In this document: in pieces, positions 8,750 to 29,029 of the stretch
How positions within the stretch are numbered: position 1 is the first letter of the stretch
How the letters are laid out: the number at the start of each line of letters is the position of its first letter
NCBI GenBank assembly: GCA_031286285.1
Contig: JAITUN010000298.1
Location: 1,799-65,798, forward strand
Direction: 5' to 3'
DNA from: Bacteroidales bacterium
GTDB taxonomy: Bacteria; Bacteroidota; Bacteroidia; Bacteroidales; WCHB1-69
Length of the DNA: 64,000 nt
Notes under the pieces: generated by a model
Seen by the model: the letters and a program-made list of their open reading frames with translations, nothing else
Database searches by the model: none
What the model was told of the DNA's origin: nothing
Translations under genes and position numbers: made by a program

Positions 8750-8781
8750 AAAAAATATTTTTTGGGTTAATACTAATGTTA

Positions 8782-9141
8782 TTAAATAAATAAATGTTTA
8801 GTCTCTTCTTTTGATAATTTTCGATAGTTTGTTTTCGAATTTTGGTTAAATATTACTTCATAATATTGTTCATCGTAAAAAGAAAGCACAGAATTAGTGT
8901 CAGGTGTACACTCTATGTAAATAATCTCCCTTAGATTCAATCCTTTTTTTTCACAAATCTGCATTGCGAGTTTAATACCTGCGGCAGTTACAGATGTTCC
9001 TGGATTATCTTGATACAGTTCAGTAACCACAACAATTTTTTTGTCATTATAATCCACTATTTTCAAACCGCATGCTGATTTTTGCTCCCACTCTCCGGCG
9101 AAAGAGAATATTTCGTCATAGTATTTTTCGGGTACTTTCAT
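8782..9141 (-). CDS. hypothetical protein
   Basis: 119-aa ORF directly downstream of the radical SAM gene on the same strand. No recognisable motif. Confidence 0.4.
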   Translation of the reverse strand: MKVPEKYYDEIFSFAGEWEQKSACGLKIVDYNDKKIVVVTELYQDNPGTSVTAAGIKLAMQICEKKGLNLREIIYIECTPDTNSVLSFYDEQYYEVIFNQNSKTNYRKLSKEETKHLFI

Positions 9142-10454: not shown

Positions 10455-10826
10455 TTATTGGTTAATAAACTGAATAGATAACTTGGCAAAACGATGCACA
10501 CTATTATGTACTACAGCGTTAATAATATGTGTCCCCATCTCTTCTGATGAAATGGAAATAGAAAAAGTTACCTCTCTGTTTTCCAAAGGATTAATTATAT
10601 TCAAAAATTTAATATTATCTATTCTTTTTAAAAAAAGGTTGCATTGTAACTTTTCTATTAATAGTTCTTTAATAATTTGAATTATACAGACTCCCGGTGT
10701 AATTGGATTTGCAGGAAAATGCGCTTCATAAATAAAGTGTTCGGGATTCAATTCGAGAACATAATCAAATCCTTTTTCTGTTTGATGAAAATTTTTTACA
10801 TAAAAAAAACTATCTTTAAGTTTCAT
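10455..10826 (-). CDS. FabZ/FabA-like hotdog-fold dehydratase
   Basis: 123 aa. HFPANPITPGVCIIQIIKE matches the FabZ catalytic HFPxxPxxPGVL motif. Confidence 0.7.
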   Translation of the reverse strand: MKLKDSFFYVKNFHQTEKGFDYVLELNPEHFIYEAHFPANPITPGVCIIQIIKELLIEKLQCNLFLKRIDNIKFLNIINPLENREVTFSISISSEEMGTHIINAVVHNSVHRFAKLSIQFINQ

Positions 10827-13380: not shown

Positions 13381-14631
13381 TTACATTTTCTTTTTTCTGT
13401 GATAAAATAGTGCAACAATTATACAAATACTAGAAAAACCTATAGAATATGCACATTCGGGTAGAATATCCATAAAAGTTCCATTGCGTATCAAAATGTT
13501 ATAAAAACCGTTCAGTCCCCAATTTAGTGGTGAAATTTGGCTAATCGTTTTCATAATCTCTGGCATAGTAAAAACAGGCACCCAAATTCCACCAATAGCG
13601 GCAAAAATAACTACTGAAAGTGCTGCAAGAATAGCTGCTTGTTGGTGGTCAGTTGTAATTTTTCCAATGAGAATACCATAGCCAATAGCTGCAAGAGACG
13701 CACACACACACATAGGCAACAACAACCAGGCGTTGTCACCAAGTATCAATTTTTGCAATCCAATATGTGGGAAAAGATATATACCTAAGGTAAAAAGTAA
13801 AGCAAACTGCAACAGACAAACGAATAAAAATACGATACCTTTACTTAACAAATATTGAAAATAGGAGGTAGGCATTGTTAGCAAACGTTTGAAACTACCT
13901 TCTTTCTTTTCATTAATTAGACTAACTGATAAAGAAAGCGTAATGAAAAATATGGCGAACAAAGTCCATGCAGGCACATTATGTTGTGTAGCATTGGGTA
14001 TCACTGCATTTTCGTCAATAAAAGCATATTGTACATCAAAATCCACTTGATTTCCATCCAGTTGTATATCTTCCAACATATTCGGAATACGTTGATTAAG
14101 TTCTGAAATAAGTTCTTTAATAAGAAAATCACGCTCTGTTTTAGCGGTATATTCTTTCATTGTACTAATAAGGGTATTGCGAAATGATATTTTGAGTGTA
14201 GGGTCAATATAAATTCTAATGGATACAGAATCAACTTTTTCATACACTTCGCCAGTAAAACCTCTCAAAACAGCACGATTTGCGTTTTGGCGTATTGAAT
14301 CTGAAATGCTCTGAGGAATCACAATTCCAATCATATAATCTCCTTTTGCTACTGCAACTCTCAAATCGTTCTCTCCACTTTCCGTTTTCATTAGAATAAA
14401 ACTTTCCGAATTTGCTATTTGTCTTTCAATAGAATTTCCCAAAGTATCGTTGTCCATATTGAGCATAATCACAGAAATTTCAGTTTCTGTAATTTTGCCA
14501 ATTAAATCGTTTTGCAAAAAAGTCATCAAAAACACAAGTACAACTGGCATCAGGAACATCAGGCAAAGGCCTGCTACATCTCTAATAAGCAACAGATAAT
14601 CCTTATATAAAAGTGTAATAAACTTTCTCAT
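13381..14631 (-). CDS. ABC-2 type exporter permease
   Basis: 416 aa. One N-terminal TM, a large extracytoplasmic loop, then a C-terminal bundle of TM helices. A 4-bp overlap links it to the ATPase gene. Confidence 0.8.
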   Translation of the reverse strand: MRKFITLLYKDYLLLIRDVAGLCLMFLMPVVLVFLMTFLQNDLIGKITETEISVIMLNMDNDTLGNSIERQIANSESFILMKTESGENDLRVAVAKGDYMIGIVIPQSISDSIRQNANRAVLRGFTGEVYEKVDSVSIRIYIDPTLKISFRNTLISTMKEYTAKTERDFLIKELISELNQRIPNMLEDIQLDGNQVDFDVQYAFIDENAVIPNATQHNVPAWTLFAIFFITLSLSVSLINEKKEGSFKRLLTMPTSYFQYLLSKGIVFLFVCLLQFALLFTLGIYLFPHIGLQKLILGDNAWLLLPMCVCASLAAIGYGILIGKITTDHQQAAILAALSVVIFAAIGGIWVPVFTMPEIMKTISQISPLNWGLNGFYNILIRNGTFMDILPECAYSIGFSSICIIVALFYHRKKKM

Positions 14632-15377
14632 GAGTCTCTTAGAGTTTTACCGGTTAGTTTTAAATACAGGTTTTCTAAATTATCGCATCCGGAATCTTGA
14701 ATCAAGTCTTTCGGTTTTCCAATACAAATCAATTTTCCTTCATCAATGAATGCTACACGAGAACAAATCATTTCTGCTTCTTCCATATAATGAGAAGTAT
14801 AAATAATGGTAGTTCCTTGTGCATTAATTTCTTTCAAATTATCTAATATCAGTGCTTTAGACTGTACATCTACGGATACGGTTGGTTCATCAAGGAACAA
14901 TATTTTCGGGAGATGCAATAGTCCTGCAATAAGATTCATACGGCGTTTCATTCCTCCTGAATATGTTTTAATCTGTCTATTTTTGCTTTGTTCCAAACAA
15001 AAATAATCAAGTAACATTTCAATCCGTTGTTTCAATTCTTTTTTTCTAAGTCCGTAAATTCCGCCAAACACTTTAAGATTTTCAACTGCTGTCAGTGATG
15101 GATATAGGGCTAATTCTTGGGGTACTACTCCAATTAGAGGCTTAATTTCTCTAATTTGTTGAGGTAAATTGTGCCCGCAAATATTTATTTTACCTGTGTC
15201 AAATGCAACAAGTCCACTCAACATATTTAGCAAAGTCGATTTTCCTGCACCGTTAGGTCCTAGCAAGCCAAAAATTTCTCCTTGAACAACTTCAATAGAA
15301 AAATTACTCACTGCAGGATTTGTATTTCCTTTATAGGTTTTACTTACATTGTTAATTTTAATTACTATTTCTTGCAT
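14628..15377 (-). CDS. ABC transporter ATP-binding protein
   Basis: Walker A GPNGAGKST, signature SGGMKRR, Walker B ILFLDEP, H-loop TSHYM. Confidence 0.9.
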   Translation of the reverse strand: MQEIVIKINNVSKTYKGNTNPAVSNFSIEVVQGEIFGLLGPNGAGKSTLLNMLSGLVAFDTGKINICGHNLPQQIREIKPLIGVVPQELALYPSLTAVENLKVFGGIYGLRKKELKQRIEMLLDYFCLEQSKNRQIKTYSGGMKRRMNLIAGLLHLPKILFLDEPTVSVDVQSKALILDNLKEINAQGTTIIYTSHYMEEAEMICSRVAFIDEGKLICIGKPKDLIQDSGCDNLENLYLKLTGKTLRDS

Positions 15378-16378
15378 TCTGTATTAATAAATTTTCTTAA
15401 AGAAACGAAAAACCTCTTTTCTTTCTCTGCAATCACAAGTAGTCTATCTGCCAATTCATTGCAAGATTCATTACTTCTATTTTTAAATTTACGTCCACAT
15501 TCAAGAGCAAAAGCACGCCAAAGGTCTCCAATAATTGACATCTCCTCGGCAAGAACCTTCAGTTTCATTTTTTGTAACACTTCTGCTGCTTCGTACAAAA
15601 ATGCGCTATATAGGAATCGGAATCCTGCTCCTCCTGTTCCAAATTCTTCCATTGCTTGCAACAAAGTTGCTAAAAAAAACAATGCATCCTGTTCTCCGTA
15701 TTTTTTTTCTATATTTCGTATTTGTTTTGAAAGAGAAGTAATACCATTAACACCAATCGGCAATATTGGGATATCAAGCATATTATAGCAAGTAGTTTTG
15801 ATTCCTTTAATAATTGCGGATTTCAGATCTAACGACTCATTTGGTTTCTCTTTTATCCAGTACATTTTTCCTTGTGGTCTGAGCATTCCTCTACTAAAGC
15901 GGACTTTTTTCAAAACATCAGATGAAAGATTTTGTATTGAAGCCACTGTTGGGTCGCTTACTGTATATATATCACCTTCTTTGCCTATTACGCACAGGTG
16001 GTGTGCATTAAAATGGATTCGCAAAGGAGTATGGGGTAAAAAATAGAGACCCACTACATTTCCCACAGGAATTCCTTGAGCAAGAAGATCATCTACTTTT
16101 TTCATTGCTTTTTCTTTGTTGAAAAACCTATTTTTTCTTCCCACTTTGATTTTCAAGTTTTTCATGGAATGCTTAAAGACTGCTCCAGGTAATGTACGAA
16201 AACTAAACTTCATCATATTTCCTTTAAAAGGCACAAAAGGCATACACACAAAAAAAAGGCCTGCTCCAATTCCAAAAGCCATAGGCTCGCTCAGTTTTAT
16301 TCCATAGAAATTCATTAGATTAGAAATTACACCTGTTTCACAATGTGCAGTGCTACGATGCTCAAAATTTAGATTCAT
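15365..16378 (-). CDS. BtrH-N-domain protein (papain-like acyltransferase/peptidase fold), copy 1
   Basis: 337 aa. The N-terminus FEHRSTAHCETGVISNLMNFYG matches the BtrH_N pattern with a candidate nucleophile Cys in HCETG. The C-terminal helical half ends GDLWRAFALECGRKFKNR. Confidence 0.7.
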   Translation of the reverse strand: MNLNFEHRSTAHCETGVISNLMNFYGIKLSEPMAFGIGAGLFFVCMPFVPFKGNMMKFSFRTLPGAVFKHSMKNLKIKVGRKNRFFNKEKAMKKVDDLLAQGIPVGNVVGLYFLPHTPLRIHFNAHHLCVIGKEGDIYTVSDPTVASIQNLSSDVLKKVRFSRGMLRPQGKMYWIKEKPNESLDLKSAIIKGIKTTCYNMLDIPILPIGVNGITSLSKQIRNIEKKYGEQDALFFLATLLQAMEEFGTGGAGFRFLYSAFLYEAAEVLQKMKLKVLAEEMSIIGDLWRAFALECGRKFKNRSNESCNELADRLLVIAEKEKRFFVSLRKFINTECKK

Positions 16379-16752
16379 AGAGGTATTATTTTTAGTTCTT
16401 CTACAGTTATTTCAAATATTGCGGCATATAGCTTTAGAGTTTTTTCATCTAATTGCATAAAATGATCAGATTTCAAATGTTTTCTTATACGTCGTTTAGA
16501 AATTCCTGTATAGGAAGACAATAAATTCAGATTGAATAAATTGGTTTGAAGGTGATAAGCGAGTGGGCTCAACTTTCCTTCAAGCACTTGTTGGCGAATA
16601 GTTTCAAGTTCTTGAGACTGTCTTGACATAATCATTGCACATGCATCAAATTTTTTTTCCCACTTTTGACGCCATTCTTTGCCATCAAAAAAATACTGGA
16701 CCATTTGTTCTCCGGCAGCTTCAACTAATTTTTCATTTACTCTTGCTTTCAC
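16375..16752 (-). CDS. small protein with XRE-type HTH-like C-terminal half, copy 1
   Basis: 125 aa. LLSSYTGISKRRIRKHLKSDHFMQLDEKTLKLYAAIFEITVEEL resembles an XRE helix-turn-helix. A 4-bp ATGA overlap links it to the downstream BtrH-like gene. Confidence 0.5.
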   Translation of the reverse strand: MKARVNEKLVEAAGEQMVQYFFDGKEWRQKWEKKFDACAMIMSRQSQELETIRQQVLEGKLSPLAYHLQTNLFNLNLLSSYTGISKRRIRKHLKSDHFMQLDEKTLKLYAAIFEITVEELKIIPL

Positions 16753-16763
16753 TTTTAGAAAAA

Positions 16764-17774
16764 TTAGTTGTTATTATTCAATTTTTCTTTTTTCAGAGCA
16801 ACAAAAAATTTTTTTTCTGTTTCAGCAATTTCGAGCACTTTATCTGCCAAGTCGTTGTAAGAAGCATTTGTTCTATTTTTAAATTTTCGACCACATTCGA
16901 GGGCAAGTTCTCGCCACAGGTCTCCAATACAGTTCATTTCTAAAGAATATTTTATTAATTTTGGTTCATTTAACAATTCTGCTGCTTCATACAAAAATAG
17001 GCCATACATATAACGATACCCTGCTCCTCCTGTTCCAATCTCCTCTATGGCTTGTGTTAAAGAAGCCAAAAACTGCAAAGCATCTTTTTTCCCATATTTT
17101 GCCTCAAGTTTTCTTATTTGTTTTGACATAGTAACTATACCTCGTACTCCGTAGAAAGAAACAAACGGAGCTCCTATCATTCTTTTGCAAGTATTTTTTA
17201 TACTTTTTTCTATTAAGCAACTAACGTTAACTATAACCGGTTTTTCTTTTATCCAATACATTTTTCCACGTGGTTTGAACGCACCTTGAGAAAATCTTAC
17301 TCTAAGTAAATCGTTGTATGAAATATTGAGCAATGTAGAATGCCAACAAGGGTCGCTTATAATGTATTCATCTCCTTCTTTGCCTACAACACAGAGGTTA
17401 TGGGCATTAAAATGAACTCTAACAGGAGAATAAGGGAGATGAAATAGACCTACCACATTTCCTACAGGTATTCCAAGTGCAAGTAATTTGTCCATCTCTT
17501 TCATCGCTTCTTCTTTGTTAACAAATCGTTTCATCCCAATTTTTACATTTAATTTTTTCAATGCACGCGCAAAAATTGAACCAGGAAAAGAACGAAAACT
17601 AAATTTAAGTGAATTTCCTTTAAAGGGTATAAAAGGTAAATAGATAAAAATGAGTCCTTCTCCTATTCCAAATATCATTGCTTCACTCAGTTGGTATCCA
17701 TAGAAGTTCATCATATTTGAAGTTACACCTGTTTCACAATGCGCTGCAACACGATGTTCAAAATTTATTGTCAT
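16764..17774 (-). CDS. BtrH-N-domain protein, copy 2 (paralog of 15365..16378)
   Basis: 336 aa. FEHRVAAHCETGVTSNMMNFYG, GKMYWIKEKP and GDLWRELALECGRKFKNR are collinear with copy 1. By eye, more than half the positions are identical. Confidence 0.7.
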   Translation of the reverse strand: MTINFEHRVAAHCETGVTSNMMNFYGYQLSEAMIFGIGEGLIFIYLPFIPFKGNSLKFSFRSFPGSIFARALKKLNVKIGMKRFVNKEEAMKEMDKLLALGIPVGNVVGLFHLPYSPVRVHFNAHNLCVVGKEGDEYIISDPCWHSTLLNISYNDLLRVRFSQGAFKPRGKMYWIKEKPVIVNVSCLIEKSIKNTCKRMIGAPFVSFYGVRGIVTMSKQIRKLEAKYGKKDALQFLASLTQAIEEIGTGGAGYRYMYGLFLYEAAELLNEPKLIKYSLEMNCIGDLWRELALECGRKFKNRTNASYNDLADKVLEIAETEKKFFVALKKEKLNNNN

Positions 17775-17793
17775 AATTAAAATTAATTTACCT

Positions 17794-18159
17794 TTATATT
17801 TTTTTAAGATCTTCTACTGAAATTCCAAAAGCAGTAGCATATTTTTTCAATGTTTCTTCATCTAATTGATTAAAAAATTTGGGTTTAAGGTGTCTTTTAA
17901 TGTGTCTTTTGGGTATTTCTGTATAAGAAGATAAAAGACCTGTACTCAGCAAGTTTTTACAAGCATAGAAAGCTATGTTGCTTAATTCTCCATTCATAAC
18001 TTTTTGACGAATCTCTTCGAGTTCATGAGACTGCTCGTTCATAGTCATTCTACAAGCATCAAACTTATCTTCCCATGCTTGACACCATTTTTCACCATCA
18101 TAATAATAATACAATTGTCCTTGATTTGCAGAAGAATTTTCTTTTACAATTACATTCAT
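17794..18159 (-). CDS. small HTH-like protein, copy 2 (paralog of 16375..16752)
   Basis: 121 aa. Shares DGxKWxQxWExKFDAC, ELExIRQ and LSSYTxIxKRxIxKHLK...QLDExTLKxYA with copy 1. Confidence 0.5.
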   Translation of the reverse strand: MNVIVKENSSANQGQLYYYYDGEKWCQAWEDKFDACRMTMNEQSHELEEIRQKVMNGELSNIAFYACKNLLSTGLLSSYTEIPKRHIKRHLKPKFFNQLDEETLKKYATAFGISVEDLKKI

Positions 18160-18175
18160 AATATAAAAATTATAT

Positions 18176-18610
18176 TCATATTTCCTTATCAGTGATCGAT
18201 ATTTTCATTTCGCAAGTTGTAATAATTTCATCTTTAATACTTACAGTTGCATTTATCAAAGAGATTTGGAATACTTCTTCAATCAAATTAACCTGTGTAA
18301 CAATAGTTTCTCCTTCTTTTGGCAAGCGATTGATTTCCAAATTTCGAATCATTCCAATAAAACCAATTTTCACACTGTTAATACCCGCTTCATTTTCAAC
18401 GGTACCAATAAATGTAGCGCAAGTTTGGGCAATATTTTCAATCAAACCTGCTTCAGCCAACACTCCATTGTCAACAAAAATATTATCTTCCCGTACCGTT
18501 AAATTTGTTTTTGTTGTTTTCGGATTTCGAAAAAGCAACGTATCCACCATAACGAAAGGCGGTCTTTGTGGAATGATTTGTAATATGCTAATTTCAGATG
18601 TTTCAGGCAT
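18176..18610 (-). CDS. hotdog-fold dehydratase/thioesterase-like protein (aryl-polyene-cluster type)
   Basis: 144 aa. IPQRPPFVMVDTLL and IENIAQTCA resemble the FabZ-like hotdog proteins found in aryl-polyene clusters. It abuts the ACP gene. Confidence 0.65.
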   Translation of the reverse strand: MPETSEISILQIIPQRPPFVMVDTLLFRNPKTTKTNLTVREDNIFVDNGVLAEAGLIENIAQTCATFIGTVENEAGINSVKIGFIGMIRNLEINRLPKEGETIVTQVNLIEEVFQISLINATVSIKDEIITTCEMKISITDKEI

Positions 18611-18859
18611 TTACTTTGTATAAACTTTCGATTCAATATAATCAACAAAATGAGATAAAGTCCTAACATCAGCCATCTCTTCGGGTTTAATTTTAAATCC
18701 GAAGTTACGTTCTACAATAACTACAATGTCAACAAAGTCAAGGCTATCTATCCCCAAGTCATCTTTCAATAATGCTTCATCAGCAATTTTATTTTCTTCA
18801 ATTTCCAGTTCTTCTACTAGAAAATTAGTTACAATTTCCTTAATTTCTTCTTTTGTCAT
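18611..18859 (-). CDS. acyl carrier protein
   Basis: 82 aa, acidic, with the phosphopantetheine attachment motif LGIDSLDFVDIV. Confidence 0.85.
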   Translation of the reverse strand: MTKEEIKEIVTNFLVEELEIEENKIADEALLKDDLGIDSLDFVDIVVIVERNFGFKIKPEEMADVRTLSHFVDYIESKVYTK

Positions 18860-20091
18860 AATACTTTATTATTTATTTTTTTTACGATAAGCACGCTGTT
18901 TGTTCCTCCAAATCCAAAAGAATTTGAAAGGAAAATATCAATATTCTTGTTTACACATTTAGGGGGGATATTCAATTTAGCAGAATATTCGTCAGGGGTA
19001 TCAAAGTTAATATTTGGAGCAATGAATGAATTTTTCATCATCAGCAGAGAGTAAAGTAATTCACTGGCTCCAGCCATCCAACACTCATGTCCTGTCATTG
19101 ATTTTGTTGAACTTACAAAAGGGCGATGGGATCCAAAAGCTTTATCAAGGGCAATAGCCTCGTAGACATCGCCTTGCGGAGTTGAAGTTGCATGTGCGTT
19201 AATATAGTCAACATCTTTTGCTTTGATATTAGCGTCAATCAGAGCTCTATTTATGGCTATTAGGCTTCCTTGGTCGCTTGGTTGCGAAATATTTGCACCA
19301 TTTGAAGAGACACCATAGCCAATAATTTCGGCCAAAATTGGCGCTCCTCTTTTAACAGCATGTTGATATTCTTCAAGAATCAGACTTGCAGCACCACCGC
19401 TTGGGATCAATCCATCTCTATCCGCGTCAAAAGGCCGAGATGCTTTTTCAGGCTCGTCAATACGCATAGAAAAGGCGCTTAATGCATCGAAACTTGCCAT
19501 TGAGAAGAGGTTTGTTTCTTGTGCTCCACCGCATAAAACCATACTTTGGATTCCATTTTTAATAAAGAGATAGCCTAATCCAATAGCATGTGATCCACTT
19601 GCACAGGCTGCGCTAATGGTCATATTGACTCCTTTCAATTTAAAGATTGTGGAAAGGTTCATCGTAACAGTTGAGTTCATTGATTGAAATACAGCTCCTG
19701 ACCCAAGCAAAGAAGTATCTCTCTTAACTCGCATAATTTCATGAGATTCTATTACAGATTTTGCGGAAGAATCATTTCCGTAGAAAATACCCATTTCATT
19801 ATTTTCCAGGTATTCCAAGTCAATACCAGCATTTTTCAATGCTTCCACAGTAGCCATGTAGGCATATTCTCCTTCTTCAGCCATTCCAATTCTTAACCTT
19901 CTATCTAAAATTCCTTTTAATACAGGGATAGGCACAATTCCTGTAAGAGGAGAACGATAGCCATATTCTTTACGCTCTTCATCAACCCCAATACCTGATT
20001 TTCCAAAAAACAAAGATTGGGTAACTTCTTCTATATTTTTTCCGATACAAGACCATATACCAAGACCTGTAATAACAACACGTTTCATCAT
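18856..20091 (-). CDS. beta-ketoacyl-ACP synthase (FabB/FabF-like)
   Basis: 411 aa. Cys box ISAACASGSHAIG, His boxes NAHATSTPQGD and TGHECWMAGA, NSFGFGGTN. Confidence 0.9.
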   Translation of the reverse strand: MMKRVVITGLGIWSCIGKNIEEVTQSLFFGKSGIGVDEERKEYGYRSPLTGIVPIPVLKGILDRRLRIGMAEEGEYAYMATVEALKNAGIDLEYLENNEMGIFYGNDSSAKSVIESHEIMRVKRDTSLLGSGAVFQSMNSTVTMNLSTIFKLKGVNMTISAACASGSHAIGLGYLFIKNGIQSMVLCGGAQETNLFSMASFDALSAFSMRIDEPEKASRPFDADRDGLIPSGGAASLILEEYQHAVKRGAPILAEIIGYGVSSNGANISQPSDQGSLIAINRALIDANIKAKDVDYINAHATSTPQGDVYEAIALDKAFGSHRPFVSSTKSMTGHECWMAGASELLYSLLMMKNSFIAPNINFDTPDEYSAKLNIPPKCVNKNIDIFLSNSFGFGGTNSVLIVKKINNKVL

Positions 20092-20117: not shown

Positions 20118-21644
20118 TTATTTTAAAAAAGTTGGCAAAGATAGATTTTTTTCTTTAATATTTTTCAACAGTTTATCAAGCCCAATTAATTCACCACAAG
20201 TTAAAATTGCAGTAAGTGGAACCCCCAAAATACCATGTAAATTAATATTTTGGCCTGTGAGAAGAAAATTATCAATCTTAGTTCGAATAGGAATTTGTGA
20301 AACAGGCATATTGTTGCAATCACTAATAGTTCCATAAATTGCACCTTCTTTTACATTATAATAATCCCTAATCGTTAGTGGAGAAGCGCTAAATACAGTA
20401 TTTATCTTTGAGCGAAAATCAGGGAAAATTTTTTCCATCATATCCAGCACTTTGTTTTCATAATTCGTTTTAAAATTTTCATATTCAGGACCACGTTTCC
20501 CGATGGTTGTATTCTCCCATTTCTTAACACTGTCAAATTTCATAATTGTGCTTATAATCATTTTTTTTGCAAAAGTGTCATGATAAGTCATCGGTGGTGT
20601 TAAATACATACATCCCCGAGGCCAACTTTCTGATGTATATTCGGCACAATTCCATACATCATCGTAGTCATGCGCATAAAAATTTGAATAGTTTTGATAT
20701 GGAAAACTTTGAGGTTTAAATGTAACAAAAGTAATAAAGGCTGAATTTGAATTTTGTATATTGTCAATTCGTTGATAATACGCCTTTTTAAAATTACACG
20801 TATCCACAATCTTAAACATTGAGGAAGGATGAATGGAAGAGATATACCAATCTGCCATATATTCTTTTCCATTTTCGGCTACTACTTTTAGTATGTGTTG
20901 TTCTTTAATATCGATGAAACTTGCACTTGTATTTGTCAGCACTTCTCCACCGTTTTCTTCGATGATCTGCACTAAAGCATCAGCAAGATGTTGGCTACCT
21001 CCAACAAAACGACTAGCTCCTTCAATATAAAAATGCGTTATAAGTGCTCCTACATAAGCCGGTGTTTTGTTTTTCCTGCCTCCATACATTGCATTGTTCC
21101 ATGCCAGAACAGTTTGCAGTTTTGGATTATCAGTATAGGAAGCAATGAGGTCTGAAATACTTGTTTCCATAACCTCAATATTAGAGTAAATATCTGCGGA
21201 AGGCATACGCAGATTATAAATGGGGATATTTTCGCAAATTTGATATATCTTTTTGATATAGTCTCTTATATTCTCTTTTTCTTCAGGAAAGTATGTGCTG
21301 AGTGTTTTCACGAAATTGTCTTGTCCTCGTGCCATTTTGTATGTTACTCCATCAGCAGCCACATGAAAATGATCAAATCCGTCTTCGTCTGCAGGTTTAA
21401 TGTGCAACTTGTCTACTATACCAATGTATGAAAATAGTTTATTTAAAGTGCCATTATGTTGAAATCCGCTGATTAGATGCATCCCTGTTTCAAACTCAAT
21501 ATCATTTCGTTTAAATGTGTGCAACCCGCCGCCTGCAACCTTGTGTTTTTCTAATACACGAACACTATACCCTTCAATGGAAAGAATTGCTCCGCAAACT
21601 AATCCTCCAATTCCACCTCCAATAATTAAAATGTTTTTTTTCAT
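20118..21644 (-). CDS. CrtI/phytoene-desaturase-family FAD-dependent oxidoreductase, copy A
   Basis: 508 aa. Dinucleotide-binding N-terminus ILIIGGGIGGLVCGAILSIEGYSVRVLEKHKVAGGG. C-terminal LLTGQNINLHGILG is shared with copy B. Confidence 0.8.
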   Translation of the reverse strand: MKKNILIIGGGIGGLVCGAILSIEGYSVRVLEKHKVAGGGLHTFKRNDIEFETGMHLISGFQHNGTLNKLFSYIGIVDKLHIKPADEDGFDHFHVAADGVTYKMARGQDNFVKTLSTYFPEEKENIRDYIKKIYQICENIPIYNLRMPSADIYSNIEVMETSISDLIASYTDNPKLQTVLAWNNAMYGGRKNKTPAYVGALITHFYIEGASRFVGGSQHLADALVQIIEENGGEVLTNTSASFIDIKEQHILKVVAENGKEYMADWYISSIHPSSMFKIVDTCNFKKAYYQRIDNIQNSNSAFITFVTFKPQSFPYQNYSNFYAHDYDDVWNCAEYTSESWPRGCMYLTPPMTYHDTFAKKMIISTIMKFDSVKKWENTTIGKRGPEYENFKTNYENKVLDMMEKIFPDFRSKINTVFSASPLTIRDYYNVKEGAIYGTISDCNNMPVSQIPIRTKIDNFLLTGQNINLHGILGVPLTAILTCGELIGLDKLLKNIKEKNLSLPTFLK

Positions 21645-23134
21645 AACCTACAATTTTTAATTTGCTCCCAAAGAAATTCTCGCCCGATAAGTTCAGAACA
21701 AGTGATGACTGAACCAATAATAACACCCATAATCCCATGAGAGTTCGTATTTTGCCCTGTAAAAAACAGATTAGGAATTCTTGTACGATGAACAATACGC
21801 GGAGTATTGACATTTCTTAACACACCATAAGCCGAACCTTTTATTGTTCCTGTATAATTCAAGTAAGTGAGGGGTGTTGATGTGTAATAATCCTCCACTT
21901 GGGCAAGTGTTCCGGGAAATTGAGCTTCTATTTGTAAAAGTAATTTCTCTGCCCTACGTTTTTTAAACTCTTTATAGGCCTCACCTCTTTGTTCAACCTT
22001 AGTACCAGCCCATTGAGCCACTTCTTCAAAATTCATAATTGTGATAATCTCTCCTGTTTGTGCATATCTGGAAAATTGTTCAGGACAAAGGTGCATATAA
22101 AGATAGCCCCTTGGCCAATCATCTGTCGTGTAGTTTTCACAATTCCACACTTCGTCTCCTGAATAATGATAAAAATTATGATTCATATAAGGCACCTTAT
22201 TTTCTTTAAATTTCAGATAAACTGTAAAATATGCAACTGTTTGTTCCATCTGATATATTCGATTTCGAAATATGGGACGGATTAAATGAGAATCAATCAT
22301 ATTAACAGTAATCTCAGGATGAGTATTAGAGATAAAATAATTAGCTTCCACGTGAGTGCCGTTTTCTAATACTATGCATTTTGCTTCAACACTGTTGCAA
22401 ACAATTTCACGTACTTTACTCGATAAAAAGATTTCACCACCAAATGAACGAATCGAATTTACCAATGAATTGGCAATTTTGTCACTCCCTCCCATAATCC
22501 GATACGCTCCTGAAATATTAGAATCTTTAATAAAAGCATGGACATATAAAGGCGTTTTTTCTTTTATTCCTGAATAAAGTGGAACTAATCCCACAAGTAC
22601 GTTTTGTAATATTTTATCTGAAGTAATTTGAGCTACAAAATCGCTAACCTTTGTAGTAGCATAGTTAGAATTGAATTGAAAAGATTCATCAGAATTGTTG
22701 ATAGAATGAAAAGGAGAACTGAGTACTATTTCTCTAATTTTTCTCGTATATAGTTTAATATTATTATACTCACTGGGAAATTTTTGTGACAATGTTTCAA
22801 TAAAGTTTTCATATCCAGTTGCATATTTATACTGCTCATTATTATATGAAATTATATCGAATCCTTCAGGGTCTAACGGATATAGTTTAATGTTTTGAAA
22901 AAGAGACAAGTACTTAAAGAATAGATGAAGAGTTTGCCCCTCATTCATACTACCAATATAATGCACTCCTGTTTCAAATTTAACACCTTTTCTTGTAAAT
23001 GTTTGCAAGCACCCTCCAGGTTGACTCCCTTGTTCAAAAACAGCAACTTTATATCCGTTTTTTGACAATATGTAACCACAAACAAGTCCACCCAAACCAC
23101 TTCCAATAATTACAACATCGTATTTATTATGCAT
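21641..23134 (-). CDS. CrtI/phytoene-desaturase-family FAD-dependent oxidoreductase, copy B
   Basis: 497 aa. VVIIGSGLGGLVCGYILSKNGYKVAVFEQGSQPGG. Collinear with copy A (WNCxxYTxxxWPRG, FFTGQNTNSHGIMG). A 4-bp overlap links it to copy A. Confidence 0.8.
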   Translation of the reverse strand: MHNKYDVVIIGSGLGGLVCGYILSKNGYKVAVFEQGSQPGGCLQTFTRKGVKFETGVHYIGSMNEGQTLHLFFKYLSLFQNIKLYPLDPEGFDIISYNNEQYKYATGYENFIETLSQKFPSEYNNIKLYTRKIREIVLSSPFHSINNSDESFQFNSNYATTKVSDFVAQITSDKILQNVLVGLVPLYSGIKEKTPLYVHAFIKDSNISGAYRIMGGSDKIANSLVNSIRSFGGEIFLSSKVREIVCNSVEAKCIVLENGTHVEANYFISNTHPEITVNMIDSHLIRPIFRNRIYQMEQTVAYFTVYLKFKENKVPYMNHNFYHYSGDEVWNCENYTTDDWPRGYLYMHLCPEQFSRYAQTGEIITIMNFEEVAQWAGTKVEQRGEAYKEFKKRRAEKLLLQIEAQFPGTLAQVEDYYTSTPLTYLNYTGTIKGSAYGVLRNVNTPRIVHRTRIPNLFFTGQNTNSHGIMGVIIGSVITCSELIGREFLWEQIKNCRL

Positions 23135-23161
23135 TTTTTTAAATTCAAAAGCAAAAATATA

Positions 23162-26100
23162 TTATTTTCCAAACAGTCGTAAATTATTTTCAATCTTCAA
23201 ATTCACTACAGCATCAAAACTTTCAATCTCTTTGTCTTCAATTGTTAAGGCATAGTGCAAATAAGAAGGCACAGAAGTGCAGTTAGCTGCTAATTCCAAC
23301 TTATCAGGGTCACTTTCAACAGCCATTATCTCAATATTTTTATTTACTAGAGAAAGTAGCAACGGTAATTCTCCATATCCGCAATTTAAAATGAGAACCC
23401 TTTTTAAATGGGATAATTTGTAGATTAACTCACAATAATTATGGTATTTTTTTAGATTTCGACGTACAATACGCTCCACCGATATTCCTTTGTAAATATA
23501 GTTATGAATCACTAAATCAGAGTAATAATTAGGAGTTTCGACTTTTGCCACCAATTTTGCGTACTCCTCTTTATAGAACTTTCTCATATTTTTTGAACAC
23601 TCCACATAATTCTCTCCCAAAGCATTGTATGCTACTCTTGGCAAAACATTGATTCGCATTTCGCCTTTACGTAACATAAACTCTTTTTTGGGCAAGAGAT
23701 GCCCTACGCCATGAATGAGTACGGGTATAATATCTAATTTTAGATGCTCTGCTAATAAAAACGCTCCACGATGAAAACGTTGTATAGAGCAATCTTCGGA
23801 GCGTGTGCCTTCTGGAAAAATCATTATCGAATACCCTTTTTCCACAATAGCTTGCAACTTGTCTATTGCATTTTCAATACCATTTGAGACAGGGTAAAAA
23901 TCTGCATATTTAATGAGTTTACCATAAAACGGCGAATTCCAAACCCAATCGTTAGTTAGAATAATTAATTTCGGTGAAAGACTCATGATGCACATTAAAT
24001 CAATATGTGACTGATGATTACAAATTATCACAGCAGGTTTATCAAATATGGTCTTGTCAAAATTGTTGTAAATTGTTTTTACACGAGGAATTCGCATCAC
24101 AACATAATGGGCTACTTTATAAATTAAGCGATGAAACCGCATTTTCTTTTTATCTGTAGTTTTTCCAAAAGTAAATACGAAAAAACCAGCTAAGGTAAGA
24201 AAAAAAGTTCCCAAAAGAAATACCACAAATGCATAGATTGAATAAGATAGATTGAGCAAAGTAATGGGCATTAATCTCTGTTTACCATTATGTTTCGTAA
24301 GCCATTTGAAAATAACCTGGGGTAACAAGAATGCCATAAGTACAACAGACCCCATTCCAATAATAGTAACTTCTGCCAACGAACGCAACGCTGGATGTTT
24401 AGCCAAAATAAGAGTACCAATTCCCACAAACATAACAAGTGACGACAAGGTAATAGTGTTTTTATATGAAACAAGCAATTTTCTTTTGTAAGCATATTCG
24501 TATATCAAGCCTTCAGTAATAAAAATGGTATAGTCATCCCCTTGTCCAAAAATAAAAGTTGCTAGAATAATGTTTACAATGTTAAAACGAATATCTAAAA
24601 TATCCATGATTCCAAGTATCCAAAACCACCCGACAGTAAGGGGGAGAAAAGCAAGCAGTGTCAATTCTATTCTTCCAAATGTGAAAAGAAGAAAAAGAAA
24701 AACAATTGTACTACATATAAAGAGTACTCTGTCAAAATCATTTGAAAGTGTACTAACCATATTTCGTCCTATGGTTCCGACGTCAAAAGCAAAAGATTTT
24801 TTGTGTATGGCATTTAAAGCATCTTCCAACTCATCCAATTCATTAGAATTTGTATGCAGAACTGCCATTACCATATAATTACCTTTTTTGTTCACAATGT
24901 AATTATGGGCTAACGTGGCTATAAGCGGTTCAAAAAAATCGATATCATGCAATTCGAAATTTTTGCTAAGGATATTGTTGAATCTTGAAAATGCACCCGA
25001 TATAAAGCCTGCTTCCACTCCAATTTCATCAATTTGAGCAAGAATATCCTTCTTTTTTTCGCAAAACTGTTTCCAACATTCAACTCTTTTCTTTTGCATT
25101 GTTTTCGAAGGCAAGTAAGCTCCTACCCCACTCACTTTCGTGACTATTCCCACATTTTGCATACTATCTAACGTTATCTTTGCATTCTCGAAAACTTCCA
25201 AAGCCTCATCCATGTTTTCACCATTAGAAACAAAATAGATTGTTTTTTGCCCCTGCTCTAAAGTAGAAATCATTTTCTTAAAATCTTTTTGCTGGGTTTC
25301 AGTCATATAGTTTATGTTTTGCATATTTGTATCAAACTTTGTATTGAAACTAAGTAAGCAAAACAGTATGGTTAACGCAAGAAAAACCCATAAGAACCAT
25401 TTTCTGCGTTTGGGCTTCCAAGAAAGAAGTTTACCAAAGGTAAGTTTATGTTCATCAAGAGTTGAATTTGTATTGATACTTTTTCCTAACAGGTGAGGAA
25501 GAAACAAAAGCACAAAAAAGATTGTTCCTGCAAGCAACAAGGCTGCAAAAAGTCCTAAATCGTGCATAGCTTCGCTGCTGATAAACAGGAGGCTCAAAAA
25601 AGCGCCAACAGTAGTAATATTTCCAATCGTTAGCGGGGTAACAATATTTTTAATGACATTAGGGATATGCGATTCATGTTTCCTGTTCATGATGAAATGT
25701 AAAGGATAATTCACTGCCACTCCAATAATTATCGAACTGATACCCACTGCAATAATTGAAATTTCATTTTTAAAGAGAGAGAGAATTCCAATAGCAAATA
25801 GCCAGCCGAACAGTAGCGAAATGAACATCAAAAGCAAATTTTTCGAACTTCTGAAAGCAAAAATCAAAATACTTAAAATAAGTATAATAGCAATAATACA
25901 AGAGATCAAACTGTCTTTTTTTATTCTTTTTGAATTAGTAACTGCAATATCCACAGACCCAAAGTAATGTACTTTGATTTTATAATCAAAATTTGAATGT
26001 GTTTGAGCTGCTACCTTGTCTATTAATCTCAACAGCAATTCATTTTGGCGTGTTTCACTGGGCGGAAACTGCGATTCAATTGTAATAATTGCCTCTTTTC

Positions 26101-26731
26101 TATCTTTAGAAAAAATAAAATCGTTGCACATTTGAAACTGATCACTTACTTGAAAATCTCTCAAGCCCATCAAAACTGACGACGACAAGTGTAGTGGGTC
26201 ATTCATTATGTTTTGCTTCATTACCATTCCGATTGGCAACATGAGCATCTGCTTATTGTTATGCATCTGCTGCCTGACATACTCTATTGTCAGCAAAGTG
26301 TCCATACGGTTATAATCTTGTTCTGTAAAAAAGTAGGGCATATTCTCCACCAAAAAATTTGATACAGAAAGAATTTGTTGCTGGTCAATCCGAAATTCAA
26401 TTTTTTTATAATAGATATTTGCCGAATCTTCTTTTTGCATTAGTTCAGCAAAAAAACAAACAGCTTCTATAATCAGTTCTTCATCGGGGCAAGCGAGAGT
26501 ATCCGACATACTTACAGTAACTAACAGTTTGTTTGCCGAGCCTATATGCTGGTACACATAGTTTATTCGTTCTGTATCATGTTCTTTTGATAAGAATGCC
26601 GAAATATCTTCTTTAAAACTGATACGGGAAGCCGAAAAAATGAGCAATAGAATCAATAAAATCAACAAACAGAACATCATCACTTTGTGTTTAGTGAAGA
26701 AGTTGTAGAGAGAAAGGATAAAATTGTCCAT
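23162..26731 (-). CDS. three-part fusion: MMPL/RND-like exporter + PlsC-type acyltransferase + short SAM-methyltransferase-like tail
   Basis: 1189 aa. About 850 aa hold two TM bundles typical of MMPL exporters. A canonical HX4D box follows (ICNHQSHIDLM, near residue 905; FPEGTRS further on). The C-terminus carries motif-I-like VLILNCGYGE and MAVESD (near residue 1110). Confidence 0.8.
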   Translation of the reverse strand: MDNFILSLYNFFTKHKVMMFCLLILLILLLIFSASRISFKEDISAFLSKEHDTERINYVYQHIGSANKLLVTVSMSDTLACPDEELIIEAVCFFAELMQKEDSANIYYKKIEFRIDQQQILSVSNFLVENMPYFFTEQDYNRMDTLLTIEYVRQQMHNNKQMLMLPIGMVMKQNIMNDPLHLSSSVLMGLRDFQVSDQFQMCNDFIFSKDRKEAIITIESQFPPSETRQNELLLRLIDKVAAQTHSNFDYKIKVHYFGSVDIAVTNSKRIKKDSLISCIIAIILILSILIFAFRSSKNLLLMFISLLFGWLFAIGILSLFKNEISIIAVGISSIIIGVAVNYPLHFIMNRKHESHIPNVIKNIVTPLTIGNITTVGAFLSLLFISSEAMHDLGLFAALLLAGTIFFVLLFLPHLLGKSINTNSTLDEHKLTFGKLLSWKPKRRKWFLWVFLALTILFCLLSFNTKFDTNMQNINYMTETQQKDFKKMISTLEQGQKTIYFVSNGENMDEALEVFENAKITLDSMQNVGIVTKVSGVGAYLPSKTMQKKRVECWKQFCEKKKDILAQIDEIGVEAGFISGAFSRFNNILSKNFELHDIDFFEPLIATLAHNYIVNKKGNYMVMAVLHTNSNELDELEDALNAIHKKSFAFDVGTIGRNMVSTLSNDFDRVLFICSTIVFLFLLFTFGRIELTLLAFLPLTVGWFWILGIMDILDIRFNIVNIILATFIFGQGDDYTIFITEGLIYEYAYKRKLLVSYKNTITLSSLVMFVGIGTLILAKHPALRSLAEVTIIGMGSVVLMAFLLPQVIFKWLTKHNGKQRLMPITLLNLSYSIYAFVVFLLGTFFLTLAGFFVFTFGKTTDKKKMRFHRLIYKVAHYVVMRIPRVKTIYNNFDKTIFDKPAVIICNHQSHIDLMCIMSLSPKLIILTNDWVWNSPFYGKLIKYADFYPVSNGIENAIDKLQAIVEKGYSIMIFPEGTRSEDCSIQRFHRGAFLLAEHLKLDIIPVLIHGVGHLLPKKEFMLRKGEMRINVLPRVAYNALGENYVECSKNMRKFYKEEYAKLVAKVETPNYYSDLVIHNYIYKGISVERIVRRNLKKYHNYCELIYKLSHLKRVLILNCGYGELPLLLSLVNKNIEIMAVESDPDKLELAANCTSVPSYLHYALTIEDKEIESFDAVVNLKIENNLRLFGK

Positions 26732-26761
26732 TGAAAAAATAACTAATTCTAAAATAGGTTT

Positions 26762-27523
26762 TTACTTAAAAATGGATTTGCTCTTGTTAACCAAGTATCT
26801 TATAAACTTCGTCGGATATCCATAAACCACTGCCAAAAAAGTAAACAGTGTATTGAGCAAACTGATACGTAAAAAATCAACGCCCGGGCGGAAATGGCTT
26901 ACTCTCTTCTCATCGGAGGCATAATAAACCCGAATAGGCACTGAAATCACTTTGATACCGCTCCATGCACAGCGCACAAGCATCTCTAATTCAGCTTCAT
27001 AACGTGATGTTATTGGACGAAGTCTCCTCATCTTTTCTAAAGGATACAAACGAAATCCGCTTTGAGTATCGGGCAGTTTTTGCCCTGTTTGTAAAGCAAA
27101 CCAAAAATTGGAAAATTTGTTTGCAAAACTGTTTTTCTTCGGCATATTATCCTGTGTCAGGTTTCTATTGCCCACCACCATCGTATCCGGTTCATTTTGT
27201 GCTACTTTCACAAATAAAGGAATATCATCGGCAAAATGTTGCCCATCCGAGTCGAGGGTTAAAGCATATTTGAAGCCTCTCTCTTGTGCGTAATCAAATC
27301 CACATTTCAGCGCAAACCCTTTTCCTCTGTTAATAGTGTATGAGATTATTCTAATTTTCTCACGAAATAGATCAAGTATTTCGTTTGTATTATCAGTTGA
27401 CCCGTCGTTAACTACTACTATTTCAAAATCATATTCCAACACAGAATCAATTACTGCGGCCACTGTTTTTGCATTATTAAAAGTAGGAATTACGACACAA
27501 ATGCCTAAATTACTCATAGTCAA
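26762..27523 (-). CDS. family 2 glycosyltransferase
   Basis: 253 aa. CVVIPTFNNAKT, VVVNDGSTDNT and LDSDGQH (the DxD region) are typical of GT2. Confidence 0.85.
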   Translation of the reverse strand: MTMSNLGICVVIPTFNNAKTVAAVIDSVLEYDFEIVVVNDGSTDNTNEILDLFREKIRIISYTINRGKGFALKCGFDYAQERGFKYALTLDSDGQHFADDIPLFVKVAQNEPDTMVVGNRNLTQDNMPKKNSFANKFSNFWFALQTGQKLPDTQSGFRLYPLEKMRRLRPITSRYEAELEMLVRCAWSGIKVISVPIRVYYASDEKRVSHFRPGVDFLRISLLNTLFTFLAVVYGYPTKFIRYLVNKSKSIFK

Positions 27524-28052
27524 TTCTAATTAATGTATAGTTGATGGCTCTCTTTTTATTTTTATAGATAATTTTTCCATCGGGTAGCCTTTTAAGTTCT
27601 TTTCGGTTTTTATAGATAACCGATAAAGTATCTTGAGCAGATACTCTCACACTTTTTATACCTTCTTCATACTTAGGGTTATCAATCTCCATAATAAACT
27701 GAATATCTGATGCAATTACTCTTTTCACATACCATTTATCAAGAAAGGAGATTACGTTCATCAATTCACATTTTTGTGGCGTAGAAACAAAGTCGAAAAC
27801 CTTAACTCCGAACTCATTGATTATGGTTCCTTTCCACAATCCATTGCTTTGTTTAACAATACAGATGCTTGAAATATTGGTTTTTGGAGTTGAGAATATG
27901 AGTCGATACTCGTTTTTTTGTATAGTATCTCTAATTTCCGTTCTCCAAAACGAAATAAGGTTTGTTTTCGGACCAATTACCATATTATTGGAAGAGGTAC
28001 AAGCAAAAAAAAGAGCTATGAAAAGACTACTGAATAGCAAATACCTCATCAC
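27510..28052 (-). CDS. hypothetical lipoprotein
   Basis: 180 aa. Lipobox-like LFFAC at the end of the signal peptide. It overlaps both neighbours (14 and 26 bp), so the exact start is uncertain. Confidence 0.5.
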   Translation of the reverse strand: MMRYLLFSSLFIALFFACTSSNNMVIGPKTNLISFWRTEIRDTIQKNEYRLIFSTPKTNISSICIVKQSNGLWKGTIINEFGVKVFDFVSTPQKCELMNVISFLDKWYVKRVIASDIQFIMEIDNPKYEEGIKSVRVSAQDTLSVIYKNRKELKRLPDGKIIYKNKKRAINYTLIRIDYE

Positions 28053-28671
28053 TCAATTCTTTATTTATCTGTTTGTTTTTCATCTCAATAAGTGTAATAT
28101 CTCCGTTAGGTTCTTCAATTTCTACTGAATTTACGGTATAATCGGTTTTGTTAAAACGCAAACGAATTTCATTGAACATCAATGCGAGCTCTTTCTGTTT
28201 AGGTTTCAAAATCACCATATTATCTTTCGTACCTGTTTTAAATTGAAATAGAAACTTTGAGGTGTCAAAAATTCCGGAACCATTAATACCTGCGACAATA
28301 ATATTGCTTATCTCTTTGAACAGTTTATTTGAGTTGATATTAATCACATTTTTGGTTGTTCCTGAATTGAGCATCACTTTGTCTCCATTTATGATAAACT
28401 CATATTGATAGGGTTTTATATATTCCCATTTAAGTTTATCATTTTGCTTAAAAAACAGTCTTCCTTCTGAAACCATTTCGTCTGCAAGAATTGAAATTGT
28501 TTTCTTTTGGACAAAATCGCAACGCAATGTATGCAAATTCACAGACGATTCATTAATATTCTGTATCATCTCTTTTTGTTGCTGTTCTGAAGCAGGTTTA
28601 TAGTCAGATTGTGCCTTAGCAGAAGAAATAATTGTTAATATGCATAGGAAGAGAGTGATGAGTTTTTTCAT
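28027..28671 (-). CDS. LolA-like outer-membrane lipoprotein carrier family protein
   Basis: 214 aa with a signal peptide. FVQKKTISILADEMVSEGRLFFKQNDKLKWEYIKPYQYEFIINGDKV follows the LolA-family pattern seen in aryl-polyene/flexirubin clusters. Confidence 0.7.
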   Translation of the reverse strand: MKKLITLFLCILTIISSAKAQSDYKPASEQQQKEMIQNINESSVNLHTLRCDFVQKKTISILADEMVSEGRLFFKQNDKLKWEYIKPYQYEFIINGDKVMLNSGTTKNVININSNKLFKEISNIIVAGINGSGIFDTSKFLFQFKTGTKDNMVILKPKQKELALMFNEIRLRFNKTDYTVNSVEIEEPNGDITLIEMKNKQINKELSDEVFAIQ

Positions 28672-28675
28672 GTTT

Positions 28676-29029
28676 TTATTTTACAACAAAAACCACGCCG
28701 GCAATAATCAGACCTACACCAATCCATCTTGTAAGTGGTACTGTTTCGTGAAAGATAAATATTGCTGCTAACATTCCAAAAACGTATGCAAATGCTGTAA
28801 TAGGATATGCAACAGAAAACTCAAAGTGTTTCATGATGAACCCCCACAAAAGTGTTGCTGCAATTAGGCAAATGCCACTAACAAGCAACCACCAGTTTGT
28901 AAACAAGTTAGCAAAATCGTTCCACGTCCATTGAAAACTATTTATTTTCTCTACAGCAAGTTTAAAACAAACCAACCCGCTTGCTAATAAAAAACATTGA
29001 AACAGGGTTAGAAAAATTACTCTTAACAT
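28676..29029 (-). CDS. small 4-TM DMT/EamA-like membrane protein
   Basis: 117 aa, four hydrophobic helices. Size and pattern resemble ArnE/F- or SMR-like half transporters. Confidence 0.5.
   Translation of the reverse strand: MLRVIFLTLFQCFLLASGLVCFKLAVEKINSFQWTWNDFANLFTNWWLLVSGICLIAATLLWGFIMKHFEFSVAYPITAFAYVFGMLAAIFIFHETVPLTRWIGVGLIIAGVVFVVK

Follow-up and report, generated by a model that had tools for sequence, protein, structure and literature searches.

The biosynthetic gene clusters of dialkylresorcinols and flexirubins contain a conserved and already named block, in which DarG and DarH are followed by an ATP-binding cassette (ABC) ATPase and a permease. In Azoarcus sp. BH72 the dar genes are ordered darA, darB, darD, darE, darF, a toxin-antitoxin pair, darI, darC and darJ, of which darD is annotated as a conserved hypothetical gene, darE as a BtrH-like peptidase, darF as an ABC ATPase, darI as a permease, darC as an acyl carrier protein (ACP) and darJ as a ketosynthase (KS), the toxin-antitoxin pair being an insertion (PMC3949708). 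A 2026 comparison, with the letters of C. pinensis, shows the genes A, B, G and H, the ABC transporter genes I/J, the ACP gene C and the KS gene D, and in F. johnsoniae gene G is the hypothetical gene Fjoh_1098 and gene H is Fjoh_1097, which encodes a protein with a BtrH N-terminal domain (PMC12968099). The Dar names of NCBIfam follow the C. pinensis lettering. Here we describe two DarG-DarH pairs (G1-H1 and G2-H2) arranged in tandem in a flexirubin-like operon of a Bacteroidales bacterium (GenBank assembly GCA_031286285.1, contig JAITUN010000298.1, positions 1,799 to 65,798 of the forward strand); the whole stretch of 64,000 nucleotides (nt) that was analysed is called the window. On balance, it appears probable that the two H proteins are ACP-dependent transacylases and the two G proteins their cognate subunits.

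Among enzymes of known structure, CtaG, from the closthioamide pathway, is a papain-like ligase whose Cys11 receives the acyl group held by a carrier protein before it is transferred by a ping-pong mechanism; its catalytic triad is Cys11-His128-Asp144, and Tyr147 lines the acyl pocket (PMC12865890). The authors of that work extended the CtaG structural class to BtrH, AsbE and MllDE, and considered AziU2-U3, which forms an aziridine, functionally unrelated (PMC12865890). For the ester-forming step of flexirubin synthesis the literature consulted proposes another protein, FlxW, without evidence. It gave no enzyme shown to form the bond that links the polyene acid to its acceptor, and the search for a BtrH-like enzyme of flexirubin synthesis yielded cluster tables only.

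Two DarG-DarH pairs in one operon

The region G1-H1-G2-H2 is the middle of one long operon. Between 13000 and 21000 the genes abut or overlap and a terminator scan gave no terminator-like site; promoter-like sites did not exceed their frequency in shuffled sequence, with a scan consensus that is not that of Bacteroidota. The initial annotation had described two consecutive pairs of a small helix-turn-helix (HTH)-like gene and a large BtrH-like gene, and all four open reading frames (ORFs) are found on the minus strand where it had placed them (Table 1). The similarity between the pairs greatly exceeds chance and makes them paralogues, with 60% identity over 331 amino acids for H1 and H2 (E 3e-150) and 54% over 112 amino acids for G1 and G2 (E 3e-43). 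G1 starts 16 nt past the preceding gene and is separated by 19 nt from H1. An ATGA overlap had been assigned to pair 1, which holds if the pairs are counted by ascending coordinate; in transcription order it belongs to the second pair, where 16375-16378 comprises the stop of G2 and the start of H2. The GTG start of G2 is supported because its orthologues have M at the same aligned position. The overlap of 13 nt between H2 and the ABC ATPase gene (15365-15377) was found as described, and so were the neighbouring ACP, KS and ABC-2 permease genes.

A dedicated small partner had been said to fit no described system. This does not stand, because the small proteins match the DarG family and the pair corresponds to darD/darE of Azoarcus and to genes G/H of C. 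pinensis and F. johnsoniae; it is DarG/DarH, a named conserved block covered by the NCBIfam families NF053536 and NF053550. The layout by which DarH is recognised, with DarG before it and an ABC ATPase and an ABC-2 permease after it, is present in the window and is the same across the related loci. The window shares with the dialkylresorcinol and flexirubin clusters the gene families, their order, the ABC ATPase and ABC-2 permease that follow, and the KS, ACP and dehydratase neighbours. It differs in that the pair is duplicated in the window and triplicated in relatives, in that DarA and DarB were found neither in the window nor in any locus with such an array, and in the diverged N-terminus of its G proteins.

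DarH proteins

The large ORFs had been interpreted as BtrH_N proteins, and the Pfam profile search supports it: both BtrH_N and DUF4872 are well above threshold in H1 and H2 (for H1, E-values of 1.3e-38 and 8.4e-44, respectively). Against NF053550 ("BtrH-related acyltransferase DarH", the DarH_acyl equivalog, with a curated cut-off of 300 bits for the whole-protein score), H1 shows 358.6 bits and H2 356.5 bits, both of which pass, and the DarH homologues linked to DarAB show 455-468 bits. Sequence searches of the PDB with H1 alone and with a profile of H gave nothing meaningful. An AlphaFold2 model of H1, with 45 homologues as input, has a predicted local distance difference test score (pLDDT) of 88 and a predicted template modelling score (pTM) of 0.88, and Foldseek on this model found a two-part fold with a papain-like N-domain and a helical C-domain. 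The best full-length match is a chain of AziU2-U3 (E 1.6e-11, TM 0.69); CtaG (E about 1e-9, TM 0.66-0.73) and CcbD (TM 0.55-0.65, including the entry of its complex with a peptidyl carrier protein, PCP) are also matched over the full length.

The HCETG sequence had been put forward as holding a candidate nucleophile, and AHCETG is present in both H proteins, its Cys13 being invariant in the 45 homologues together with His121, Asn123 and His125. At position 141, 35 of these sequences have Asp and 10 have Glu, and the spacing of 16 from His125 to Asp141 is equal to that of CtaG. Cys13, His125 and Asp/Glu141 form the candidate catalytic triad of H, and the invariant His121 could be an alternative candidate for the catalytic histidine. 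No ACP was found in the cluster other than the one encoded three genes upstream of H1, which, from this context, is the likely acyl donor for the H proteins. At pH 7 the net charge is +15 for H1 and +19 for H2, and -11 for the ACP, a complementarity that fits ACP docking. ACP offloading or acyl transfer, one of the functions first suggested for the large ORFs, is the best reading because the predicted fold is that of the CtaG and CcbD transacylases and the Cys-His-acid residues are conserved.

CtaG and H share the predicted two-part fold and a carrier-protein gene nearby, and the candidate Cys-His-acid residues of H have the His-to-acid spacing of CtaG. The sequence identity between them is about 13%, and CtaG forms amides between two PCP-bound substrates, whereas the likely donor for H is an ACP of the fatty-acid or polyketide type and the acceptor is possibly a hydroxyl, which would give an ester. 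No small HTH partner was seen in the CtaG literature consulted; to our knowledge, BtrH has no such partner either. CcbD and LmbD, condensation enzymes of lincosamide synthesis, are Cys-dependent and act on acyl groups bound to carrier proteins, as proposed for H, but they have an amino sugar acceptor, belong to an actinomycete pathway and lack a DarG-like partner. In the AziU2-U3 aziridine synthase complex (PDB 8gs1 and 7wuw) the protein that matches H1 works together with a second protein of the same pathway, and by analogy this is a precedent for a partner subunit on this fold. The chain letters suggest that one AziU2-U3 subunit alone has the H-like fold; the partner subunit was absent from the Foldseek matches of the G1 model.

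Another invariant motif, GTGG[AV]G[FY]R[FY], is located at H1 residues 247-257, in the DUF4872 helical C-domain (window 15365-17774), and falls in a lower-confidence stretch of the H1 model. It might, speculatively, bind the phosphate of the phosphopantetheine or act as a lid.

Distribution and co-amplification of the pair

The survey comprises 98 related loci obtained from one genome scan, one metagenome scan and look-ups, and 96 of them plus the window (97 in total) were annotated with hidden Markov models built from the G and H alignments. The small ORFs had been expected to be conserved and co-inherited with the large ones, and G is directly upstream of H, on the same strand, in 96 of the 105 H genes with enough upstream sequence. 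Among 103 G-H junctions, the two genes overlap in 50 (by 4 nt in 24 cases) and are spaced by 1-5 nt in 37, which gives 87 in total. The usual order is (DarA-DarB)-(dehydratase)-G-H-ABC ATPase-permease-(KS), and the canonical loci L071 and L079 show KSb-ACP-DarA-DarB-DH-G-H. DarB abuts G in about 30 loci and is confirmed by NCBIfam in L036, L079 and L010; homologues of the dehydratase DH1 of the window precede G in many loci, and the ABC ATPase comes after the last DarH in most of them. The block is found in Bacteroidales and Rikenellaceae metagenome-assembled genomes (MAGs) and in MAGs labelled as delta proteobacterium, Leptospirales and Spirochaetota.

Many contigs, including L011, L016, L017, L018, L021, L024, L026 and L056, contain two or three G-H units in tandem, and DarA or DarB was found in none of the tandem-array loci. 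G and H are co-amplified as a unit, in two or three copies (e.g., in L011, L016 and L021). The copies are orthologous types that keep the fixed order H1-H2-H3 in more than 10 loci: the H1-type contains 14 sequences, 72-77% identical to the H1 of the window; the H2-type contains eight sequences, 72-78% identical to its H2; and the H3-type contains seven sequences, 55-60% identical to both. G2-type orthologues are 68-82% identical and always adjoin H2-type genes, and G1-type proteins diverge faster, with 50-58% identity. Because the types are orthologous and in fixed order, the duplication in the window is old and has been kept across a lineage of Bacteroidales. The closest relatives that carry a name are the MAGs "Prevotellaceae bacterium Cus372_bin5" and "Bacteroidales bacterium Fux382_bin47". 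In the Leptospirales MAG (L013) a duplication took place independently and more recently, with 77% identity between the copies.

In L097 (9629-12422) and L098 (6136-8929), on contigs of 62 kb and 59 kb, the cassette G1-H1-G2-H2 is on its own: it is flanked by genes for RNase Y and for an ATP-synthase-A-like protein, and ABC, ACP and KS genes are absent within 10 kb. Adjacency, translational coupling, co-amplification and the persistence of the cassette away from the cluster suggest that G and H are functionally coupled. Over 48 G-H-ABC triples, the distance-matrix correlation between G and H is 0.70, or 0.53 as a partial correlation controlled for the ABC ATPase, the other two partial correlations being 0.28 and 0.36; these values are suggestive only, because the pairs are not independent.

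Some loci show further features. An acyltransferase gene and a LuxE-like gene are located near the stand-alone cassette of L097 and L098. In a Bacteroidetes MAG (L012:985-5201) four DarH-like genes follow one another in tandem; their identity among themselves and with the window copies is 37-48%, and the first scores 279 bits, just under the DarH cut-off. In L016, a locus with three G-H pairs, an ORF of 144 amino acids without a family match (L016:4951-5385) separates the third DarH gene from that of the ABC ATPase. In L033 (488-7561) two 100% identical DarB-G-H-ABC segments are inverted on one 8-kb contig, either by a recent inverted duplication or as an assembly artefact.

Differences between H1 and H2

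H1-type and H2-type orthologues are fixed differently at 18 positions, among them W144/V144, H112/F112 and N126/H126, the last of which is next to His125. W144/V144 is three residues past the candidate catalytic Asp and, by spacing, corresponds to the pocket position of CtaG Tyr147. These differences would fit different substrate preferences, and the two distinct acylation steps proposed in the initial annotation are plausible in view of paralogue-specific residues near the predicted active site. A redundant or decaying duplicate was considered and rejected, as both copies keep all invariant residues and each has orthologues with 72-78% identity in many contigs.

DarG proteins

G1 and G2 score 81.7 and 75.6 bits against NF053536 ("DarG family dialkylresorcinol biosynthesis protein"), barely above the subfamily cut-off of 70 bits, and 86.7 and 81.4 bits against NF053545, the flexirubin DarG equivalog, where both fail the cut-off of 170 bits. 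They align only to model positions 35-130, approximately. The G proteins of DarAB-linked loci reach 163-170 bits over the whole model (about 169-170 in L036 and L079), against 76-82 bits in the window; because of these low scores and the partial alignment, the window G proteins are a diverged subgroup with a different N-terminus. The family is small: 1.84 billion proteins gave 385 representatives with E below 0.001, almost all of them free-standing and 85-170 amino acids long. The single long member, P0318 of the representative library (446 amino acids), has a radical S-adenosylmethionine (SAM)/SPASM-like N-terminal part and a C-terminal DarG domain, either as a genuine fusion or through an error of gene calling; B12-binding radical SAM proteins are also encoded in the window cluster (9177-10442) and, in L010, immediately before DarB.

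The AlphaFold2 model of G1 (mean pLDDT 82) shows a disordered N-terminal tip, a β-hairpin (14-31), a long helix (33-55) and a five-helix bundle (61-120) with pLDDT above 90. The earlier description of the C-terminal half as an XRE-like HTH is correct by predicted fold and not by Pfam thresholds, since the Pfam HTH models are sub-threshold (HTH_26, 13.8 bits against 22; HTH_60, 14.7 against 24.1).

DarG could accordingly be an ordinary XRE-family transcription factor for the cluster or for its own operon, its pairing with DarH being merely conserved gene order. Its C-terminal 58 residues superpose at 1.8-2.3 Å on SinR, C.AhdI, ClgR and DdrO, and at about 2 Å on HipB and P22 c2, with Foldseek E-values of only about 0.1; the sequence has the classical HTH pattern with a conserved basic helix, KRxIKKHLKP (helix 3), and some family members have a precomputed HTH_26 match. 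The bundle also superposes, however, on the HTH-like domains of HEPD, HppE and MPnS, which are enzymes that do not bind DNA, and G differs from XRE/Cro-C1 proteins such as SinR, C.AhdI, HipB and DdrO in that the N-terminal β-hairpin and long helix replace the C-terminal dimerisation domain, in its scores below the Pfam thresholds and in a gene context that points to an enzyme partner. G1 lies mid-operon, and the 16 nt that separate it from the preceding gene are too few for a separate promoter or operator; the stop of G overlaps or abuts the start of H in the 87 junctions mentioned above, and there is one G per H, duplicated together, which a regulator of the cluster would not need. In the 62-nt region upstream of the stand-alone cassette no clear palindromic operator was seen, although no systematic search was made. 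A transcription factor of this kind is possible and, given its gene context, unlikely.

Alternative functions of DarH and of the pair

DarH could be a hydrolase, either a thioesterase that frees the ACP-bound product or a C39-like peptidase acting with the adjacent ABC exporter. The N-domain is papain/C39-like, with Foldseek matches to 3erv and to the peptidase domains of PCAT1 and ComA (E 1e-4 to 4e-3), there is a weak Pfam match to Peptidase_C39_2, an ABC exporter gene directly follows, and the annotation of Azoarcus darE agrees with it. The peptidase option, also raised in the initial annotation, is weaker than acyl transfer because the C39 matches are limited to the N-domain at much lower scores (TM about 0.33), whereas the transacylases match over the full length at TM 0.66-0.73. 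Moreover, the Peptidase_C39_2 score of 13 bits falls short of the cut-off of 24, the exporter belongs to the ABC-2 (DrrAB/NodIJ) type and is not a PCAT, no gene for a double-glycine precursor was found, and G is folded and shows no such motif in its alignment. Hydrolysis is an improbable function for DarH. A module for ribosomally synthesised and post-translationally modified peptides or bacteriocins was rejected on the same features: the ABC-2 exporter, the lack of a double-glycine precursor and a C39 likeness confined to the N-domain.

A switch of the repressor-protease or antitoxin-toxin kind, comparable to ImmR/ImmA, DdrO/IrrE, CapH/CapP or HipB/HipA, with H cleaving G or being restrained by it, would suit a small upstream XRE-HTH gene that overlaps a larger enzyme gene by ATGA, the HipB, DdrO and CapH matches of the G1 fold and a cassette that can stand alone among housekeeping genes, but it is very improbable, as the known protease partners of such switches are zinc metallopeptidases and not papain-like, the PADLOC defence search gave no real match, and the family keeps to dar/flexirubin surroundings (with DarB, ABC, ACP or KS as neighbours in most of the 97 sources) and not scattered like mobile toxin-antitoxin modules.

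The surrounding flexirubin-like cluster

The operon that extends from about 29029 down to 4787 is, as judged from its gene content, a flexirubin-like aryl-polyene lipid cluster (Table 1). The genes that mark a flexirubin cluster are present, namely FlxY, LolA2, KS and chain-length factor, the MMPL-acyltransferase fusion and the flavin adenine dinucleotide (FAD) oxidoreductases. LolA2_flexi scores 199 bits against a cut-off of 125, and LolB2_flexi 35.6 bits, below its cut-off of 60. Neither the NCBIfam/Pfam scan of cluster ORFs nor tblastn of the window gave a match to tyrosine ammonia-lyase (FlxA); FlxA or DarA/DarB could be elsewhere in the genome.

Table 1. Genes of the flexirubin-like cluster in order of transcription, with positions in the window
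Feature	Position	Strand	Length (amino acids)	Remarks
EamA-like, LolA2, LolB2-like, GT2 (family 2) glycosyltransferase, MMPL/RND-lysophospholipid acyltransferase fusion and two CrtD-like FAD oxidoreductases, in this order	20118..29029	minus		
FabB/F-type ketosynthase KSb	18856..20091	minus		
Acyl carrier protein	18611..18859	minus		NCBIfam ACP models
FabZ/hotdog-like dehydratase DH1	18176..18610	minus		Directly upstream of G1; weak FabZ matches
G1, DarG-family small protein	17794..18159	minus	121	DarG_fam match, AlphaFold2 model
H1, DarH, BtrH_N + DUF4872 papain-like transacylase (predicted)	16764..17774	minus	336	
G2, second DarG-family protein	16375..16752	minus	125	GTG start
H2, second DarH	15365..16378	minus	337	Same motifs as H1
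ABC ATPase, DrrA/NodI-like, DarI in the C. pinensis lettering	14628..15377	minus		NCBIfam drrA, E 4.9e-73
ABC-2 type permease, DarJ	13381..14631	minus		NCBIfam ABC-2 permease families; position conserved in related loci
KS	11920-13203	minus		
Chain-length-factor-like protein	10844-11923	minus		
Hotdog dehydratase, second of the cluster	10455-10826	minus		
B12-binding radical SAM protein	9177-10442	minus		
Esterase	7340-8155	minus		Pfam BD-FAE
FlxY aryl-CoA ligase	5908-7212	minus		FlxY_rubin, 694 bits against a cut-off of 520
LPLAT-type (lysophospholipid) acyltransferase	4787-5911	minus		Pfam Acyltransferase

Between the radical SAM and esterase genes are two genes encoding proteins of no known family, of 194 and 119 amino acids (window 8165-9141), the former with a hydrophobic, signal-peptide-like N-terminus. 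An M14 carboxypeptidase is encoded 2.4 kb beyond the cluster edge (31442-33865); it combines a MAM-like domain with a C-terminal sorting domain for type IX secretion. In C. pinensis the dar cluster has an "M14 family metallopeptidase" as its gene E, so the proximity of the window gene may not be due to chance. Two tandem paralogues of 172 amino acids each, 55% identical, with similar hydrophobic, signal-peptide-like N-termini and no Pfam family, are encoded at 37355-38449. An ORF at 49936-50802 matches GlsA, the lyso-glycine lipid O-acyltransferase of glycine-lipid synthesis in Bacteroidota, with 360 bits against a cut-off of 260.

Proposed function and its implications

In the proposed mechanism, H1 and H2 would both belong to the BtrH/CtaG/CcbD class of papain-like transacylases that depend on a carrier protein. 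The acidic ACP would dock on the strongly basic H, and the ACP-bound acyl chain would pass through a thioester on Cys13 to a hydroxyl or amine acceptor, in a ping-pong manner. The product would then be taken by the ABC-2 exporter encoded directly after the pairs and carried by the LolA2, LolB2 and MMPL proteins to the outer membrane. As old, separately conserved paralogues, H1 and H2 probably differ in acyl donor or acceptor, which would give two transfer steps. Each DarG, made just before its own DarH, is most likely a cognate subunit (an adaptor, a docking protein or a control subunit) and not a regulator of the whole cluster. What the data show directly is the class of the predicted fold, the conservation of the triad residues, how often G and H pair, the history of the duplication and which genes surround it; acyl transfer as the reaction, the nature of its donor and acceptor and a complex of G with H are inferred.

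Several observations weigh against this mechanism. The top structural match of H1 is an aziridine synthase, and the fold alone does not fix the chemistry; the support for the candidate triad consists of conservation and spacing. No G-H fusion was found among the 385 G-family representatives or the 122 surveyed H ORFs, and G is not strictly required, because some H copies have no G (all four of L012 and the third H of L002, L026 and L027). DNA binding by G is entirely possible because the canonical HTH pattern includes a basic recognition helix. DarA and DarB, the canonical source of the acceptor, were not found in the window by tblastn or by the NCBIfam and Pfam models on the scanned ORFs. Finally, no published biochemical or genetic experiment on DarG, DarH, Fjoh_1097 or Fjoh_1098 was found, the literature yielding cluster tables only.

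A more far-reaching proposal, which we put forward tentatively and consider doubtful, is that DarG is an XRE-type HTH protein that has left DNA to become a cognate subunit of the papain-like transacylase, for specificity or ACP docking. G-H would then be a portable acyl-transfer module of two proteins that, by tandem amplification, serves several different ester-forming steps on a dialkylresorcinol-free aryl-polyene lipid in anaerobic gut Bacteroidales, and the single pair would be the enzyme that joins polyene to resorcinol in flexirubin.

What is new is the finding of amplified, orthologously fixed G-H units in a cluster where DarAB was not found, and the strength of the coupling between G and H. 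DarH is a concrete candidate for the ester bond step because it has a clear structural class, as modelled that of the CtaG/BtrH/CcbD-type thiotemplated transacylases, and adjoins the ACP and the exporter. If it is true that DarG binds DarH, this near-obligate, co-amplified protein would be a new kind of accessory protein for the enzyme class. For these Bacteroidales, which the survey recorded from metagenomes and MAGs, the arrays, with no DarAB seen in the available sequence, point to a different product that is acylated more than once.

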